Source: a bacterium (GTDB lineage Bacteria > Patescibacteriota > Minisyncoccia > Moranbacterales > UBA2206). From it: a stretch of 64,000 nucleotides of DNA. The first letter of the stretch is position 1. The number at the start of each line of letters is the position of its first letter. Where the stretch lies: assembly GCA_021777675.1 (NCBI GenBank), contig JAJYDG010000001.1, positions 4,997 to 68,996 of the forward strand, written 5' to 3'. Under the pieces are notes generated by a model, which did not search any database, had not been told where the DNA came from, and saw nothing but the letters and a program-made list of their open reading frames with translations. Positions 6,843 through 60,363 of this stretch are shown here, piece by piece. Both the position numbers and the translations under genes were made by a program.

Positions 6843-7854
6843 GCATATGTTCACAAAATATTTCATAAAATTATCGACTACAAACATAAAAGACTTAAAG
6901 GGTTCTTCTTTTCAAATACTAAAATATGCCCTAAGTAGAGATATTGAAGTATATAGAGTTTTTTCTGACAAAAGAATTCTCGTCCTAAAAAAAGACTCAA
7001 AGCAAGTTTGGATAGACACCTCTCTCACTTCAAAAACAAATCCCGTAGGTATGAGAATAGCAAGAAATAAACATCTCTCAAAGAAATTTTTAAAAAAACT
7101 GGGGTATCCCGTCGCACCAAGCATAAACATGCAAAGTAATGACGACTGCACTCAAATCAGTAATCAAGCAATATCGGAAATAGGCTTTCCATTAGTGGTT
7201 AAGCCGCTAAGAGCTGCTGAGGGAAAGGGCATTACAACTAACATCAATAATAAAGATCTCCTTTTAAATTCGATTCAATCAGCTTTAAAATTTGATAAAA
7301 AAATAATGATCGAAAAACATATTGCCGGTGATTATTACAGAATAACTTATGTGGCAGATGGTGCCTATGCGGTTACAAAAAATCTTCCGGCATATATTAC
7401 TGGAAATAATTCCAACACCATCAGGGAGCTAATTTCAATAGAAAACATTAACAATAAAGAAAGACGCGGAAGGGGAAAATTAAAAAAAATTAAAATTTCA
7501 GAAAAAACTGAAAGATTTTTAGCATCTGCCGGATATACATTTGATTCAATTCTGCCTAAGAATATTAAAATACCTCTTTGCTTCAGCGGATTTGATGGTG
7601 GAGAATATATAAATGTGACAAAAAAAGCTCACCCGTATTTCATAGAAATAAGCAAACAAATATCTGAAAGCCTAGGCTTGCCAATAGTCGGCATTGATAT
7701 TGTCTCACAAGCTATAAATATTCATCCAAAATTAAACAATGGAGTTATAATTGAAATAAATGGCACATACCCAGATATTCTATTTCACAATAAACCAACT
7801 TACGGGGAGGCCACTAGCCTCATCCCTAATCTTATTGATTACTTGTTTTCTTAA
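6829..7854 (+). CDS. ATP-grasp ligase, cyanophycin-synthetase-like ATP-grasp domain (no Mur-ligase domain)
   Basis: …GFPLVVKPLRAAEGKGITTNINNKDLL…EKHIAGDYYRITYVADGAYAVTKNLPAYITGNNSNTIRELISIENINNKERRG…LGLPIVGIDIVSQ… parallels the CphA N-terminal ATP-grasp region; start ambiguous (ATG 6829 or 6847; ORF track used TTG 6826). Confidence 0.65.
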   Translation: MFPNKHMFTKYFIKLSTTNIKDLKGSSFQILKYALSRDIEVYRVFSDKRILVLKKDSKQVWIDTSLTSKTNPVGMRIARNKHLSKKFLKKLGYPVAPSINMQSNDDCTQISNQAISEIGFPLVVKPLRAAEGKGITTNINNKDLLLNSIQSALKFDKKIMIEKHIAGDYYRITYVADGAYAVTKNLPAYITGNNSNTIRELISIENINNKERRGRGKLKKIKISEKTERFLASAGYTFDSILPKNIKIPLCFSGFDGGEYINVTKKAHPYFIEISKQISESLGLPIVGIDIVSQAINIHPKLNNGVIIEINGTYPDILFHNKPTYGEATSLIPNLIDYLFS

Positions 7855-7879
7855 TTTTTTATTTTTAATCACCATTTCT

Positions 7880-8764
7880 ATGAAACTAAAATTTCTAATC
7901 GTTAGTTCGCGAATCAGCCAGCTCTCGCAAGATTTAATTGACGAAATACTAATAAAAGGGCATACTTTTGCATTTTCCACTACGCAAGATTTTATTTTCG
8001 AAATAGAAAATGGTCATTTTAAAGCAAGCACCCCAAATATTCCCAATCTTTTTGATTTTGATATATATATCCTAAGATCATTTTCCAAAAATATGGCCAA
8101 TTCCAAAATATTTACCGAGGAACTTAGATTAAAAAATAAAATAGTAATCGAAGAGTGTATTTCAGATAATTATATCAATAGTAAATTTGCAGAAGGCGTA
8201 CGCCTTACGCGTAGCGGTCTCAACTATCCGATTTCTTATCAAATTCCCAATATAGAAAATATTGAAAAAATTCCTGATAACATTTTTCCAGCAATAGTTA
8301 AACCAACCAATGGTTCCAGGGGTCGCAATATCTCAATAATTGAAAATAAGAAAGACCTTGCTAATTTTATACAAAAAAATCCCGAGGATCTCTTGGTACA
8401 AGAATATTTACCCATTGAATGGGATATTCGAATTTTTGTTGTTGGCAATAAAGTTTTGGGTGGAATAAAAAGATATGTTTTGGAAGGCGATTGTCGTTCC
8501 AACGCATCTTTAGGATCTCAAACTGAGCCTTTCGAAGTTGCGCCAGAAATTGAAGAAATAGCGCTAAAAGCCACAAAAACATTACACTATTCAGTTGCTG
8601 GCGTCGATCTTGCTTGGGCAAAAAATAAGCAAAATTGGTTTGTAATTGAAGTAAACATATCTCCCCAATGGCACGCATTTAAAGCTATAACCAAAATCAA
8701 TCCGGCTATTCATATTATTCAGCACGCGATTGATTTGTATGTCAAGAAAAACGCTCAGAAATAA
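7880..8764 (+). CDS. RimK-family alpha-L-glutamate ligase (ATP-grasp)
   Basis: ORF track 7760-8764; probable start ATG 7880 (MKLKFLIVSS…); …FPAIVKPTNGSRGRNISIIENKKDL…VQEYLPIEWDIRIFVVGNKVLGGIKRYVLEGDCRSNASLGSQTEPFE…AGVDLAW…FVIEVNISPQW typical RimK ATP-grasp core. Confidence 0.7.
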   Translation: MKLKFLIVSSRISQLSQDLIDEILIKGHTFAFSTTQDFIFEIENGHFKASTPNIPNLFDFDIYILRSFSKNMANSKIFTEELRLKNKIVIEECISDNYINSKFAEGVRLTRSGLNYPISYQIPNIENIEKIPDNIFPAIVKPTNGSRGRNISIIENKKDLANFIQKNPEDLLVQEYLPIEWDIRIFVVGNKVLGGIKRYVLEGDCRSNASLGSQTEPFEVAPEIEEIALKATKTLHYSVAGVDLAWAKNKQNWFVIEVNISPQWHAFKAITKINPAIHIIQHAIDLYVKKNAQK

Positions 8765-8898: not shown

Positions 8899-11514
8899 AT
8901 GCGCAATCGTTTTTTTTCAAAAATTCACAGCATTTTCACACGAAATAACAATCCCGCTAAAAATACCGCTAATGGCTGGAAAAAAATTTTTAATTGGAAA
9001 TTTCTTCTTAAGTTTTTTGGAATTGGTTTTGGCTTAGTTGTTTTATTTATTGCAGGAGTTTTCGCTTATTTTTACAAAGAACTTCCAAATCCGGACAATA
9101 TCAATATGCGCTTTATCGCCGAATCCACCAAAATTTACGATCGCACCGGAACACATTTGCTCTATGATGTTCATGGAGAAGAAAAACGCACCCAAATTCC
9201 CTACGAACAAATGCCTGATACGCTCAAATACGCAACCATCTCACTGGAAGATCAAAATTTTTATCACCATCCGGGCATAGAATTGTCCGCTGTTGCCAGG
9301 GCGGCAATTGCCGATATTTTACATCGCGGAGCCTCGCAAGGAGCTTCAACAATAACACAGCAACTAATCAAACAATCCGTTCTTACTCCGGAAAAAACCC
9401 TTTCGAGAAAAATTAAAGAAGTAATTCTTTCTCTTGAGCTGGAGAGAAAATTTTCTAAAAATGAAATTTTGGCAATGTATCTCAATCAAATCCCCTACGG
9501 ATCAAATGCTTATGGAGTCGAGGCTGCTGCGCAAACTTTTTTTGGAAAACACGCCAAAGACCTTACTTTAGACGAATCAGCAATGCTAGCTTCATTGCCA
9601 CAGGCACCCTCCTACTATTCTCCCTACGGAAACCACAAGGACGCACTGAAAGGTCGCCAAGAATATGCCCTGAATCAAATGGCTAAACTTGGCTATATTA
9701 CTCAAGATCAAGCTAATCAAGCAAAAAGCGTTGATATTTTCGCCAAAATAAAACAAAGTTCTGAAAATATTTCCGCCCCTCATTTTGTAATGTATGTTAA
9801 AGAATACTTGGAAAAAAAATATGGCACACAAACAGTGGAACAGGGGGGATTAAAAGTTTATACAACACTAGATTGGGATAAGCAACAAATTGCCGAAAAA
9901 GCCGTTGCTGACGGAGCTGACAAAAACTCCAAACTCTATAATTCGGGAAATGCGGCTCTTGTCGCAATGGATCCAAAAACAGGACAGATCTTAGCTATGG
10001 TTGGCAGTAAAAGCTATTTCAAGCCAAGCGAACCCACCGGTTGCACGCCAGGAAAAAATTGCGTTTTTGAACCAAATGTTAATATTGCAACTGCGCTGTT
10101 GCAGCCAGGATCATCCTTTAAGCCCTATGTCTATCTCACTGCTTTTGAAAAAGGTTACACCCCGGAAACAAATATTTGGGATGTTGACACTAATTTCAGC
10201 ACCGACAGCGGAGCCGTCTATGATCCAAAAAATTATGACGGAAAAAATAGTGGCCTTATGCAAATGAAAGACGCGCTTGCCAGATCATTAAATGTTCCAT
10301 CCGTCAAGACGCTTTATCTTGCTGGAGTAAAAGATTCTATTGCTACGGCTCATAAAATGGGCATTACAACCCTTAATCAGCCAGATAGCTATGGACTCTC
10401 TTTGGTGCTTGGCGGAGGAGAGGTAAAATTACTTGATCATGTTAATGCCTTTTCTACATTTGCCACTGATGGTTTTCATCATGACACAACAGCAATTTTA
10501 CGCATTGAAGATAGTAAGGGCAATATTCTGGAAAAATACACTCAAAATGATGGGGAAAAAGTGGTGGATGAAAAATATATCGCAATGATTGATTATATTC
10601 TTTCCACAAACAGCCTTCGAGCGCCTGTTTTTGGAGACAAAAATCCGCTTAGTTTTGATAATCGTCCGGTTGCCGCAAAAACAGGAACCACTAATGATTG
10701 GCGAGATGGTTGGACAATTGGCTATACCCCTTCTATTGCTGTTGGGGTTTGGGCAGGTAATAATGATCACTCCAAAATGAAACCGGGAGCCGATGGAATA
10801 TTTGTTGCCGCACCAATTTGGCGCAGTTTTATGGATCAAGTCTTATCAAACTACGCAGTTGAACAATTTCCCACCTACACACCAGAAACAACAGGAAAGG
10901 ATGTTTTAGACGGAAAACTAGAAATGAAAAAAGAATTAAAGGTTTGCAAAATTCCAGGAACTAAAAATGATTATTGCTTAGCAACTTCCGCTTGTCCTAA
11001 TAGTGAGGTGGAAAAAAAGAAATTTTCCGATGCGCATAGTATTCTTTATTATGTCAACAAAGACGATCCTCGTGGCAATCCACCAAAAGATCCCTCAACC
11101 GACCCACAATTTAATAATTGGGAAACCGGTGTTACTAACTGGCTAAAGGATAATAAATACTCAACCGATCCAATTCCAACTGATGATTGTAAATCAAAAG
11201 ATTTTTCAAAATACAATCTTCAAATAGATTCTATTTCTCCTTCTGATGGGCAAACAGTAACATCATCACCACTCAACATATCCGTTAAAATCAATGCTCC
11301 ATATGGAGTTAAAAATGCCTCAATAAGCGTTGATGGATCAACAATTGCTTCTCAGGGCTCTGATTCTTTTGGTGCATCCTATTCCATTCCGGATAGCAAA
11401 AAAAATTCCAGCATAACTATTAGCGTTAATGCAACAGATAATAATGGAAATTCAGACTCAAAAAGCGTTAAAGTTAATATCAACATTCCGACATCAACAG
11501 TAACTACACCATAG
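8899..11514 (+). CDS. mrcA: class A penicillin-binding protein (PBP1A; transglycosylase + transpeptidase) with C-terminal Ig-like repeats
   Basis: N-terminal TM, GT51 motifs (…ISLEDQNFYHHPGIEL…RGASQGASTITQQL…) and transpeptidase SxxK/KTGT (…AAKTGTTNDWRDGW…); 871 aa. Confidence 0.9.
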   Translation: MRNRFFSKIHSIFTRNNNPAKNTANGWKKIFNWKFLLKFFGIGFGLVVLFIAGVFAYFYKELPNPDNINMRFIAESTKIYDRTGTHLLYDVHGEEKRTQIPYEQMPDTLKYATISLEDQNFYHHPGIELSAVARAAIADILHRGASQGASTITQQLIKQSVLTPEKTLSRKIKEVILSLELERKFSKNEILAMYLNQIPYGSNAYGVEAAAQTFFGKHAKDLTLDESAMLASLPQAPSYYSPYGNHKDALKGRQEYALNQMAKLGYITQDQANQAKSVDIFAKIKQSSENISAPHFVMYVKEYLEKKYGTQTVEQGGLKVYTTLDWDKQQIAEKAVADGADKNSKLYNSGNAALVAMDPKTGQILAMVGSKSYFKPSEPTGCTPGKNCVFEPNVNIATALLQPGSSFKPYVYLTAFEKGYTPETNIWDVDTNFSTDSGAVYDPKNYDGKNSGLMQMKDALARSLNVPSVKTLYLAGVKDSIATAHKMGITTLNQPDSYGLSLVLGGGEVKLLDHVNAFSTFATDGFHHDTTAILRIEDSKGNILEKYTQNDGEKVVDEKYIAMIDYILSTNSLRAPVFGDKNPLSFDNRPVAAKTGTTNDWRDGWTIGYTPSIAVGVWAGNNDHSKMKPGADGIFVAAPIWRSFMDQVLSNYAVEQFPTYTPETTGKDVLDGKLEMKKELKVCKIPGTKNDYCLATSACPNSEVEKKKFSDAHSILYYVNKDDPRGNPPKDPSTDPQFNNWETGVTNWLKDNKYSTDPIPTDDCKSKDFSKYNLQIDSISPSDGQTVTSSPLNISVKINAPYGVKNASISVDGSTIASQGSDSFGASYSIPDSKKNSSITISVNATDNNGNSDSKSVKVNINIPTSTVTTP

Positions 11515-58831: not shown

Positions 58832-58978
58832 TTTTTTGTTTTTTTGGTATGAAAAATAAATGTTTATTTGAGCCATTAAAAAGTAAATTACTTTTTAATT
58901 GATAAAAATAAAGACAAAAATTTTCTTAAAAAAATAAAAAATAAAATCGCTGTTATACGGGCAAAATTGATTTAGCGT

Positions 58979-59007
58979 TGACTCAACTTGAAATTCTTGC
59001 TATAATA
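58979..59007 (+). promoter_or_regulatory. sigma70-type promoter TTGACT - 17 nt - TATAAT
   Basis: near-consensus -35 and consensus -10 in a 670-bp ORF-free spacer; ~35 nt upstream of the 22-bp inverted repeat. Confidence 0.5.
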
Positions 59008-59044
59008 AATACATTAGAACATTAAAAAAATAAAAATAAAAACG

Positions 59045-59099
59045 GTAAAACAATTTTCAATCACAATTTCCCCCTATTTGTGATTGAAAATTGTTTTAC
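59045..59099. repeat. 22-bp perfect inverted repeat (GTAAAACAATTTTCAATCACAA / TTGTGATTGAAAATTGTTTTAC) with 11-nt loop
   Basis: directly seen; would form a very stable hairpin at the 5' end of any transcript from the upstream promoter. Confidence 0.75.
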
Positions 59100-59386
59100 T
59101 GTTCAAGTGTTTTGGCCAACGTGTCAAAGCCGCTTCGATTTCTGACATCGGAGACCCAAAATAAAAACAAAAATTATTTATACAAAATAAAAAAATAAAT
59201 AATAAAAAAATAGTTCTTTCAAATTCAAAGGTGAAAAATCACCAGAGAATGGTAAAACAAAATTTCTAGAGTCAGAATGGAAATAAACAAAAGTTATGTA
59301 TATAAAATACATGTTTGTTATAACATTGATGCCACTCACCCGGCTAAAATGTTTCCGCATAGCATGTTAATACATGACAAACACTG

Positions 59387-59475
59387 GGGCGTTCCAGCCA
59401 AATTTTTTATTTATTGGGCGTTGAACGCCCTGGTTTCCAAACCGTTTGTTTTTTAGGAAAACCAGAGGCACCAAA
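59387..59475 (+). promoter_or_regulatory. hairpin cluster upstream of yraN resembling a terminator/antiterminator (attenuator-like) arrangement
   Basis: GGGCGTTC…GAACGCCC (59387-59430), TGGTTTCC-AAACC + TTTGTTTTTT, and overlapping alternative pairing TGGTTTCC…GGAAAACCA; followed by a T-run at 59477-59488. Confidence 0.3.
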
Positions 59476-59521
59476 GAAAGGGTGTTTTTTTGTTTTTCTA
59501 AAAATTTGTTATACTAAGATT

Positions 59522-59914
59522 ATGGCACCTAAACTTACACCAAAAAAACAAATGGGAAATTTGGGAGAACGTATTGCTATGAATTATTTAAAAAAGAAAG
59601 GTTATCAAATAATTGAAAGGAATTATGTTAATACCAGAGGAGTAAAATTGGGAGAAATTGATATTATTGCCAATGATAATAAAAAAAATGAATTAATTTT
59701 TGTCGAAGTAAAGACGCGGGAATTTAAAAAATACGGAAATACTTTACCAGAAGAAAATGTTAACTATCAAAAAATGCGTAAATTGGAACGAATTGCCTGT
59801 TTTTATTTACAGCAAAAGAAACTATTGAATCAAAATTATCGCTTTGATGTAGTTGCTATTTGGGTTAATTGGCAGACAAGGACTGCCAAAGTGAAGCATA
59901 TCAAGTCTATCTAG
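59522..59914 (+). CDS. yraN: YraN family (UPF0102) predicted endonuclease
   Basis: ORF track 59414-59914; likely start 59522 (MAPKLTPKKQMGNLGERIAMNYLKKKGYQIIERNY…GEIDIIA…LIFVEVKTR…). Confidence 0.75.
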   Translation: MAPKLTPKKQMGNLGERIAMNYLKKKGYQIIERNYVNTRGVKLGEIDIIANDNKKNELIFVEVKTREFKKYGNTLPEENVNYQKMRKLERIACFYLQQKKLLNQNYRFDVVAIWVNWQTRTAKVKHIKSI

Positions 59915-60015
59915 TTAGTATTGAAAAAAGATAGAATTAAAATAAGAAGCAGATGGACAGGAAGAGGCTTATTTGTTATACTGAAATAGTCAATATAATC
60001 TTTAAAATAATGCAT

Positions 60016-60363
60016 ATGGACAAAAAATTTTTAATTGAATTCAAATCGCTTTTATTAAATGAAAAGGCAGAGTTGGAAAAAAGTTTAGAACGGATTGCTA
60101 AGCCAATCAATAAAGAAAGGGGCGATTATGAAACTACTTTTGAAGAAATCGGTACGGATAGAGAGGATAATACAACAGAGGTTGAAGAGTATGCGGAAAA
60201 TCTTCCGGTAGAAATGGCATTGGAAAAAAAATTGCAAGATGTTATTTTAGCCCTGGATCGTGTAGAAAGTGGAACTTATGGATTTTGCGAAAATTGCCAA
60301 AAAGAAATTGAAATTGATCGCTTAAGAGCTAATCCTAGCGCTAAAACTTGTATTAAATGTTAG
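60016..60363 (+). CDS. DksA/TraR-family C4 zinc-finger protein
   Basis: coiled-coil N-terminus and C-terminal C..C-x17-C..C (…GFCENCQKEIEIDRLRANPSAKTCIKC); upstream of lspA as in several Gram-positive lineages. Confidence 0.65.
   Translation: MDKKFLIEFKSLLLNEKAELEKSLERIAKPINKERGDYETTFEEIGTDREDNTTEVEEYAENLPVEMALEKKLQDVILALDRVESGTYGFCENCQKEIEIDRLRANPSAKTCIKC

Follow-up and report, generated by a model that had tools for sequence, protein, structure and literature searches.

A probable stand-alone structured RNA of about 480 nucleotides encoded upstream of yraN in Moranbacteria

What is encoded in the 690-bp spacer (58832–59521) that separates the stop codon of a 462-amino-acid gene from the ATG of yraN at 59522 in a 64,000-nucleotide stretch of Moranbacterales DNA (assembly GCA_021777675.1, contig JAJYDG010000001.1, positions 4,997 to 68,996; hereafter the window)? 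The spacer is apparently empty. Candidatus Moraniibacteriota are uncultivated bacteria of the candidate phyla radiation (CPR) with small genomes, and the original prediction for this locus had pointed to a consensus promoter, a perfect 22-bp hairpin and a set of attenuator-like alternative hairpins, for which it offered three explanations: an independent small RNA, a cis-regulatory leader of yraN or a recombination site. Comparison with related loci establishes a gene on the + strand with defined boundaries, whose RNA has a conserved fold that includes a kissing interaction between two loops and a pair of competing helices. We consider it probable that this is the gene for a stand-alone, trans-acting, structured non-coding RNA (ncRNA) of about 480 nt, belonging to an uncatalogued family and equipped with a sigma-70 promoter and a terminator. 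The first of the three explanations is the best supported, with the correction that the pieces originally noticed are not separate elements but the 5′ and 3′ ends of one RNA.

The gene order pnp, hyp462 (the 462-amino-acid gene) homologue, ORF-free gap of 660–930 bp, yraN, dksA-like, lspA and comM is found in every relative with a PNPase at least 67% identical, where ORF stands for open reading frame. The ORF-free spacer between the hyp462 homologue and yraN was present in 12/12 related species genomes first compared, and gap ORFs compared across species were unrelated to each other. Promoter, hairpin and terminator are conserved in the aligned gaps, and so are numerous blocks inside the element. 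A hidden Markov model (HMM) built from them and used with nhmmer recovered the RNA at full length, at the same locus, in all 14 related species genomes searched. A DNA pattern of three blocks, derived from the gap alignment, hit 94 loci when metagenome contigs were scanned, and nhmmer found the full-length RNA in every one of them. After copies at least 95% identical were dropped, 81 non-redundant full-length sequences of 489–678 bp, promoter included, remained. Where enough flanking sequence was available, yraN lay directly downstream in 89/92 loci and the hyp462 homologue upstream in 64/66. The exact YraN protein itself occurs on 18 public contigs that represent one strain-level population, and comparison of PNPase across species-representative genomes assigns the window to Candidatus Moraniibacteriota, in the Patescibacteria/Parcubacteria group.

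The gene is bounded by recognizable signals. The promoter TTGACT-17-TATAAT is real and lies at 58978–59006, one base away from where it was first placed; it matches 11 of 12 consensus positions, carries a TG extension in addition and is nearly invariant among the homologues. At the other end, the short hairpin and T-run of the original prediction form an intrinsic terminator (59464–59489, then U7), and a terminator-like hairpin with a U-run was detected automatically in 64/81 homologues and seen in the alignments of the rest. The perfect 22-bp stem also stood up to analysis (59045–59066/59078–59099) and extends to 26 bp, the longer helix containing one G-U pair. It would not form immediately upon transcription, as had been supposed, given that it begins about 28 nt past the predicted transcription start.

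That the hairpins are conserved, which the original prediction had left to comparative alignment, is borne out by covariation across the 81 non-redundant homologues. In the 5′ half of the RNA, 34 diverse sequences had 90.0% of alignment cells paired, against 37–49% when the partners were slid; 39 of 54 pairs had changed on both sides, and 0 of 500 shuffles reached the observed values. Across 31 sequences, the 3′ half was 91.0% paired, against 26–50% in slid alignments, with 20 of 27 pairs changed on both sides, and separate pair counts over all 81 sequences agree with these figures. G-U pairs outnumber A-C mismatches by 566 to 155 (3.7-fold), indicating that the helices are kept at the RNA level and that it is the + strand transcript that folds. 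As for coding capacity, the spacer is not strictly free of ORFs, as had been claimed: it contains just two mechanical ORFs of 59–60 amino acids, neither of which has a Pfam match. Even the most widely shared ORF start occurs in just 16 of the 81 members, and indels shift the reading frames.

Consensus and minimum-energy folds describe five separate domains with unpaired ends (coordinates in Table 1). The 5′ domain opens with hairpin P1, which has a fold energy of −32.8 kcal/mol (z = −10.5) and in which 20 of 26 pairs have changed on both sides; its apical loop UUUCCCCCUAU (59067–59077) is identical in 47/81 members and C-rich in nearly all. All seven pairs of P2 show compensatory changes and 93% of its cells are canonical, a proportion that reaches 95% in the P3 stem. 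The first of the two A-rich linkers that follow is conserved in sequence, GC-richer members included. Hairpin P4, between the linkers, is variable and serves as an expansion site at which some members carry inserts of 60–90 nt; extra well-paired hairpins of this size were seen in L016, L169, L134, L014, L121, L175, L172, L144 and L089. In the central hub, a candidate helix P5 (GUUCUUU/AGAGAAY, 59213–59219/59244–59250) is 99% canonical and invariant; it shows no covariation and is not reproduced in most compact relatives described below, so that we list it as an unproven candidate. The loop motif of the adjoining K hairpin is enclosed by a stem of at least 4 bp in all 81 copies, with stem sequences that are unrelated to one another.

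The 3′ half is similarly constrained. A long irregular hairpin adopts one minimum-energy fold common to all members (z = −4.7), with P7 and P8 93–98% paired and 13 of their 14 pairs changed on both sides, and it presents a conserved apical loop, ACUCACCC in the window (59334–59341) and of the form YUCACCC in 80/81 members. The 8-bp GC stem of the original prediction is likewise genuine and proves to be part of the long-range helix P11, which is 90% paired (z = −4.0; four of six counted pairs changed on both sides) and encloses P12 (95–99% paired); plain energy minimisation recovers both in diverse members. The pairing of TGGTTTCC with GGAAAACCA, originally likened to terminator/antiterminator switching, does exist as hairpin P13, whose base overlaps P11. 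It is found in many members and absent in some, four of which have at most 7 nt at this place. We examined the P11/P13 overlap as a second switch and rejected it: it is missing where P13 is absent and beats shuffles in just 18 of 74 cases. P13 is a variable and dispensable hairpin, not a conserved switch.

Table 1. Positions in the window of the RNA gene, its helices and its control signals
Feature	Position	Strand	Details
-35 hexamer TTGACT	58978..58983	+	TTGAC in 81/81 non-redundant homologues
Extended -10 element TGCTATAAT	58998..59006	+	TG extension in at least 71/81, TATAAT in 65/81, 17-bp spacer in at least 71/81
Predicted ncRNA, ~480 nt	59013..59492	+	5′ end predicted from -10 spacing, 3′ end from terminator U-run
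P1, 26-bp hairpin	59041..59103	+	arms 59041-59066/59078-59103; X = 59041-59052, X′ = 59092-59104
P2 hairpin	59109..59130	+	59109-59115/59124-59130; loop with conserved CAAYG
P3 hairpin	59133..59153	+	59133-59139/59147-59153; loop UCUGAC 59141-59146 is the kissing partner
Two A-rich single-stranded linkers around P4	59154..59212	+	59154-59172 ACCCAAAAUAAAAACAAAAA and 59204-59212; P4 59173-59181/59195-59203
Central hub	59213..59260	+	GUUCUUU 59213-59219 (invariant); P6 59230-59234/59239-59243; CCAGAGAAUGGUAAAAC with X2 59247-59258/60
K hairpin	59262..59284	+	stem 59262-59268/59278-59284; loop GUCAGA 59271-59276
Long irregular hairpin	59293..59378	+	P7 59293-59301/59370-59378; P8 59309-59313/59363-59367; P9 59322-59327/59348-59353; P10 59331-59333/59342-59344
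3′ domain	59383..59434	+	P11 59383-59394/59423-59434 (11-12 bp) encloses P12 59397-59399/59417-59419 and a ~17-nt AU-rich loop
P13, lineage-variable hairpin TGGTTTCC/GGAAAACCA	59434..59465	+	core 59434-59438/59456-59460; extension 59430-59433/59461-59465 competes with the end of P11
Intrinsic terminator	59464..59491	+	stem 59464-59472/59481-59489, GC core 59469-59472/59481-59484, then U7
yraN extended -10 element TGTTATACT	59507..59515	+	6 nt before ATG 59522; outside the RNA

Two long-range features tie these domains together. The P3 loop UCUGAC and the K loop GUCAGA, about 130 nt apart, form a 6-bp kissing interaction that is 98% canonical across the family, and the covariants CCUAAC/GUUAGG, UCUGGU/ACCAGA, UCUUAGC/GCUAAGA, CCCUG/CAGGG and UCGAC/GUCGA preserve it. 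The second feature concerns the 3′ strand of P1, X′, which is equally complementary to its hairpin partner X and to a segment of the hub about 150 nt downstream, X2. Because X and X2 both pair with X′, the two helices are mutually exclusive. Each of them, P1a (X:X′) and X′:X2, is about 94% canonical and carries compensatory changes, six to seven pairs of X′:X2 having changed on both sides, and at least 9 of 12 positions are paired in all 81 members. At position 59103, which faces 59248, a change is compensated in the X′:X2 pairing only.

Relatives outside the Moranbacteria bear on how these helices arose. In most other CPR lineages pnp, the hypothetical gene and dksA are tightly packed, with neither yraN nor a gap, and three Parcubacteria loci have an ORF-free gap at that site, directly upstream of dksA. 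The gap of one of these, L023 (Azambacteria), folds into a compact RNA of about 230 nt built on the same plan. Its 5′ strand pairs at 16 of 17 positions with a hub that follows a small hairpin of GGC/GCC type; it has P2-like and P3-like hairpins, and a K-like loop GCAGA that complements the P3-like loop UCUGC; and a GC-rich closing helix, with an inner helix and AU-rich loop inside it, precedes a U-run. Fetching relatives of L023 through its DksA protein revealed the compact RNA at six more distinct loci, giving seven sequences in all. Their alignment is 93.2% paired, against 38–47% when slid, with 94.3% in the closing helix, and four of six pairs in the K stem have changed on both sides. The kissing pairs are 100% paired, and a UA-to-CG covariation within them splits the sequences four to three. 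The compact form lacks P1 with its X strand, P4 and the long hairpin, and yraN is absent from its locus; in L192 and L193 a beta-lactamase-like gene sits between the RNA and dksA.

HMM comparisons between the expanded and the compact forms gave weak, collinear matches (best E = 0.005–0.03, against E of at least 2.3 for shuffled controls; best reciprocal HMM E = 0.005). On the basis of position, element order and near-identical kissing sequences, we judge it probable that the Moranbacteria and Azambacteria RNAs are homologous. If this homology is accepted, X′:X2 would be the ancestral closing helix, the Moranbacteria RNA would be an expanded form to which the competitor strand X was added, and the association with yraN would be secondary. 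The other two gaps upstream of dksA each have a consensus-like promoter, a terminator and no Rfam match. L033 (Spechtbacteria, 10579–11238, 660 bp, ORF-free) contains GUUCUUU...AGAGAAC, and L022 (Portnoybacteria, 7693–8269, 577 bp, ORF-free) contains a P11/P12-like 3′ domain (GAGGGGCAUUG...AGCC-AU-rich loop-GGCU...CGAUGCCCCUC). At most, these two gaps are candidate relatives of the RNA family.

In our preferred reading, these features make up one multi-domain RNA. A 5′ domain of P1 to P3 is followed by a central hub in which the K hairpin is locked to P3 by the kissing interaction, then by the long hairpin and a GC-rich 3′ domain. Displayed on this fold are the conserved C-rich apical loops of P1 (UUUCCCCCUAU) and of the long hairpin (YUCACCC), along with the pair of A-rich single-stranded linkers. 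The long-range helix X′:X2 closes the conserved core, and the 5′ extension of the Moranbacteria adds strand X, which sequesters X′ in the 26-bp P1. The RNA can thus exist in two states, or requires a maturation step to reach the closed one. We infer that it acts in trans as an abundant RNA of housekeeping type, that its conserved loops and linkers bind protein or RNA partners, and that the choice between X and X2 gates its activity; yraN and dksA would be mere neighbours rather than targets. Within the 64-kb window, a search for trans targets of the P1 and long-hairpin loops found TAGGGGGAA-like sites at chance frequency and CCGGGTGAG-like sites mildly enriched (7 against 2.7 expected), with no pattern at gene starts.

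We were interested in whether this RNA belongs to a described family. The covariance-model search proposed with the original prediction matched no Rfam family at the spacer: at gathering threshold, Rfam 15 identified only tRNAs elsewhere, in the whole window and in 22 related or outgroup loci. With E relaxed to 10, five representatives spanning 25–48% GC gave chance hairpin matches only, at or below 30 bits against gathering thresholds of 70–98. These searches covered RNase P RNA, signal recognition particle (SRP) RNA, 6S RNA, OLE, ROOL, GOLLD, raiA, HEARO, riboswitches and the T-box. ARAGORN reported four tRNAs and no transfer-messenger RNA (tmRNA) in the window, and the 3′ end of the RNA is a terminator, not CCA. 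Inspection of the consensus for P4 and CR-I to CR-V of RNase P, a tRNA-like end, SRP domain IV and a 6S-type rod revealed none of them. Literature searches on ncRNAs of Patescibacteria, Moranbacteria and Parcubacteria, on yraN-associated ncRNAs and with the conserved strings returned no description of such an RNA. The RNA is a strong candidate for a new family, with no homologue in Rfam 15 or the searched literature, that is present in at least one candidate phylum and probably in two or more.

Comparison with known RNAs helps to place it nonetheless. Like OLE, ROOL, GOLLD and raiA, it is hundreds of nucleotides long, multi-domain, non-coding and lineage-restricted, with helices, a long-range kissing interaction among them, backed by covariation, and it has the features by which ornate RNAs are loosely recognized (more than 400 nt, many covarying helices with tertiary contacts, no coding capacity). 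It resembles ROOL further in having a poorly conserved internal segment, here P4 and the linkers (PMC12286853). It differs from these four RNAs in lacking sequence or structure homology to them by Rfam, in residing at one fixed chromosomal locus of CPR Parcubacteria as a single copy with no phage or tRNA-gene association, and in carrying a conserved pair of mutually exclusive helices. The CrcZ/CrcY RNAs of Pseudomonas, which sequester Hfq/Crc via A-rich motifs, are of comparable length (about 400–500 nt) and also have a strong promoter and a terminator of their own, and the present RNA shares with CrcZ conserved single-stranded A-rich tracts of AAN-repeat type (AAAACAAAAACAAAAA). CrcZ has about six such motifs, whereas there are two tracts here in an RNA that is mostly tightly structured. 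CrcZ also provided the only sub-threshold Rfam matches on the A-rich linkers, at 9.8–12.1 bits against a gathering threshold of 95, scores that reflect compositional resemblance only.

Two further comparisons turn on the neighbouring genes. As with HEARO, the omega-RNA of IscB, a large structured RNA lies directly upstream of, and co-oriented with, a small predicted nuclease gene, here that of YraN. However, the RNA is set apart from the ORF by a terminator and a separate promoter, YraN carries no additional domain, and neither transposon ends nor a variable guide-like segment are found at the RNA; nor do the two genes always occur together, as the RNA persists without yraN and its probable relatives precede dksA. 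6S RNA offers a likeness in being a single-copy, housekeeping-like gene with a strong promoter, and the compact relatives adjoin the gene for a DksA-like, RNA-polymerase-binding factor, but the present RNA does not form one rod whose ends pair and whose centre is an open bubble, and measures 480 nt rather than about 180.

The alternatives to a stand-alone RNA start with the gene that follows. It is unlikely that the spacer is a cis-acting leader of yraN-dksA-lspA-comM, a riboswitch or attenuator in which a signal shifts the competing folds and sets read-through at the terminator. Such a leader is suggested by an RNA that in every case immediately precedes a gene on the same strand, most often yraN, that ends in an intrinsic terminator and that contains conserved mutually exclusive helices, features shared with riboswitches and T-boxes. 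Yet within the 160 nt upstream, the longest stretch complementary to the terminator's 5′ strand averages 4.29 nt, identical to the 4.29 nt of shuffled sequences, and is significant in 1 of 70 sequences; there is no antiterminator, and the switching envisaged in the original prediction is not supported. More than 200 nt of sequence separates the competing helices from the terminator downstream of them, with which they make no contact; the RNA, at 480–650 nt and five domains, far exceeds known leaders (it is two to five times larger than riboswitches and T-boxes); and no Rfam riboswitch aptamer or T-box matches it. Furthermore, yraN appears to be transcribed separately. Its extended -10 element and the absence of a Shine-Dalgarno sequence (59507–59524) imply a leaderless mRNA with a promoter of its own, a -10-like box stands 4–11 nt before the ATG in 39/72 homologous loci, and L023 shows the same layout, TTTTTTGTTATTCT-N6-ATG, before dksA. 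Anywhere from 2 to 345 nt lie between the RNA and the ATG, and the gene downstream differs by lineage: yraN, dksA, the beta-lactamase-like gene or, in rearranged loci that keep the RNA with no yraN following, two predicted secreted or membrane proteins (L138/L091) or an unrelated 187-amino-acid protein (L167). Since there is no antiterminator, yraN has a separate promoter and the downstream gene differs, we read the RNA as independent of yraN. A reading that makes more of the RNA itself, and which we consider unlikely, has it as a functional RNA machine of a new class in CPR bacteria. It could be a ribozyme, or a molecular switch gated by a ligand or a protein. Either way, the closed, kissing-locked core would be active and X would act as a built-in inhibitor that is displaced or cleaved; in a variant of it, the RNA could be a cofactor for the YraN nuclease or for the DksA-like RNA-polymerase factor.

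Other explanations keep the fold and change what it does. That the RNA assembles with copies of itself into an RNA-only particle of the ROOL, GOLLD or OLE type, with the kissing pairs and possibly X′:X2 acting as intermolecular bridges and the linkers and P4 disordered, we regard as quite unlikely. There is precedent: the covarying kissing loops of ROOL and GOLLD were initially taken for tertiary contacts and later shown to bridge separate molecules, and a linker in ROOL is disordered and little conserved (PMC12286853). Covariation is blind to the distinction between intra- and intermolecular pairing, and the present RNA is of comparable size and ornateness. Against this, Rfam gives no homology to ROOL, GOLLD or OLE, both the kissing pair and the closing helix persist in the 230-nt compact relative, as fits an intramolecular pseudoknotted fold, and palindromic loop covariation, the proof of symmetric intermolecular contacts, was not seen. 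The gene is also chromosomal, at a fixed locus and in single copy, with no match for the family-derived pattern on viral contigs, whereas ROOL and GOLLD are phage-associated. It is improbable, too, that the transcript is a precursor whose P1 is an RNase III-type stalk, cleavage of which would remove X and let X′ pair with X2 in a mature closed core. P1 is a near-perfect duplex of 22–26 bp, long enough for RNase III, it is thermodynamically dominant when uncut, and the compact relative has X′:X2 only; but few sequences of the RNA are as conserved as the P1 apical loop, which would be odd for a stalk to be discarded, and processing would supply a mechanism for the switch rather than another identity for the element. 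A divergent housekeeping RNA (RNase P RNA, tmRNA, SRP RNA or 6S RNA) missed by Rfam models would account for a gene that every examined genome has in single copy, under a strong, constitutive-looking promoter; atypical RNAs are a known trait of CPR genomes. The absence of any model match in the relaxed searches, of a tmRNA by ARAGORN and of diagnostic features in the consensus makes this highly improbable. Least credible of all is a DNA-level element (a recombination site, as the original prediction allowed, a miniature inverted-repeat transposable element or other repeat, or a replication palindrome) or a decayed or small protein gene, despite the long perfect inverted repeat and the two short ORFs, one of which is called as a gene on some contigs. 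The P1 arm is unique within the 64-kb window, where no match is expected by chance, compensation is strand-specific with the excess of G-U over A-C already described, and the ORFs have neither a conserved start and frame nor a Pfam match.

Several observations weigh against our preferred interpretation of a stand-alone, trans-acting RNA. The transcript, its ends and its abundance are predicted solely from sequence signals. Nearest-neighbour energies favour the full P1 over X′:X2 by a median of 7 kcal/mol, which leaves the closed state possibly rare, or dependent on a factor or on processing. In a subclade that includes L121, L157, L173 and L103, the yraN ATG follows the U-run by about 14–20 nt with no obvious promoter, and read-through coupling is possible there. 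The position of the RNA is fixed within a clade-wide syntenic block, and context cannot separate functional linkage from inheritance. Finally, the link between the expanded and compact forms is weak in sequence and covariance statistics: nhmmer gives E = 0.03–0.3, and L023 is the top hit of a 3′-domain covariance model at just 20.5 bits (E = 0.15), among GC-rich, terminator-like decoys.

The surroundings of the RNA gene yielded further observations. The upstream 462-amino-acid protein has no Pfam match, and YraN is a UPF0102 protein, a predicted small nuclease of PD-(D/E)xK-like type with no extra domain by Pfam. An A/U-rich hairpin, UUAAAAAGUAA-AUU-UUACUUUUUAA (58875–58899), lies 44 nt past the stop codon of the upstream gene, and relatives have an AAAAAGU...ACUUUUU hairpin at the equivalent place, most clearly in L015 (GAAGUC-AUCG-GACUUC, then U7). 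It is probably the terminator of that gene, in which case the spacer would hold this terminator, then an AT-rich stretch upstream of the RNA gene, the gene itself and the promoter of yraN. The list of ORFs includes a 166-amino-acid, TTG-started extension of yraN (59414–59914) that reaches into the 3′ domain of the RNA; it is a mechanical artefact, the conserved start being the ATG at 59522. The dksA-like gene is called at 136 amino acids (59953–60363), its homologues align from residue 1 of a 115-amino-acid version that starts at 60016, and a promoter-like TGGACA-17-TATACT with TG (59954–59982) falls within the longer ORF; the annotated start is probably too far upstream. In L009 (5521–8130) the hyp462 homologue is separated from the RNA gene by two inserted genes, for a 357-amino-acid Cys-rich repeat protein and a 374-amino-acid ATPase; yraN still adjoins the RNA. 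In L037 (6001–8094) the PNPase alignment falls into four pieces in different frames, which points to frameshifts; these may be errors of long-read assembly and not the mark of a pseudogene.

Few bacterial RNAs are both large and intricately folded, and nearly all those with a known function are ribozymes or the cores of ribonucleoprotein machines. OLE, GOLLD, ROOL, HEARO and raiA each opened a line of work, and HEARO was later recognized as the RNA that guides IscB. The 81 expanded and seven compact sequences, together with the helix model, suffice for a covariance model of the present family and for mapping it in metatranscriptomes. That every genome examined keeps a non-coding gene of about 0.5 kb, with a near-invariant consensus promoter, speaks for an important role in these bacteria. 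The compact Azambacteria form defines a minimal core, to whose closing helix one lineage added a competitor strand, and the comparison of expanded and compact forms provides a testable hypothesis on the conformational control of RNA.

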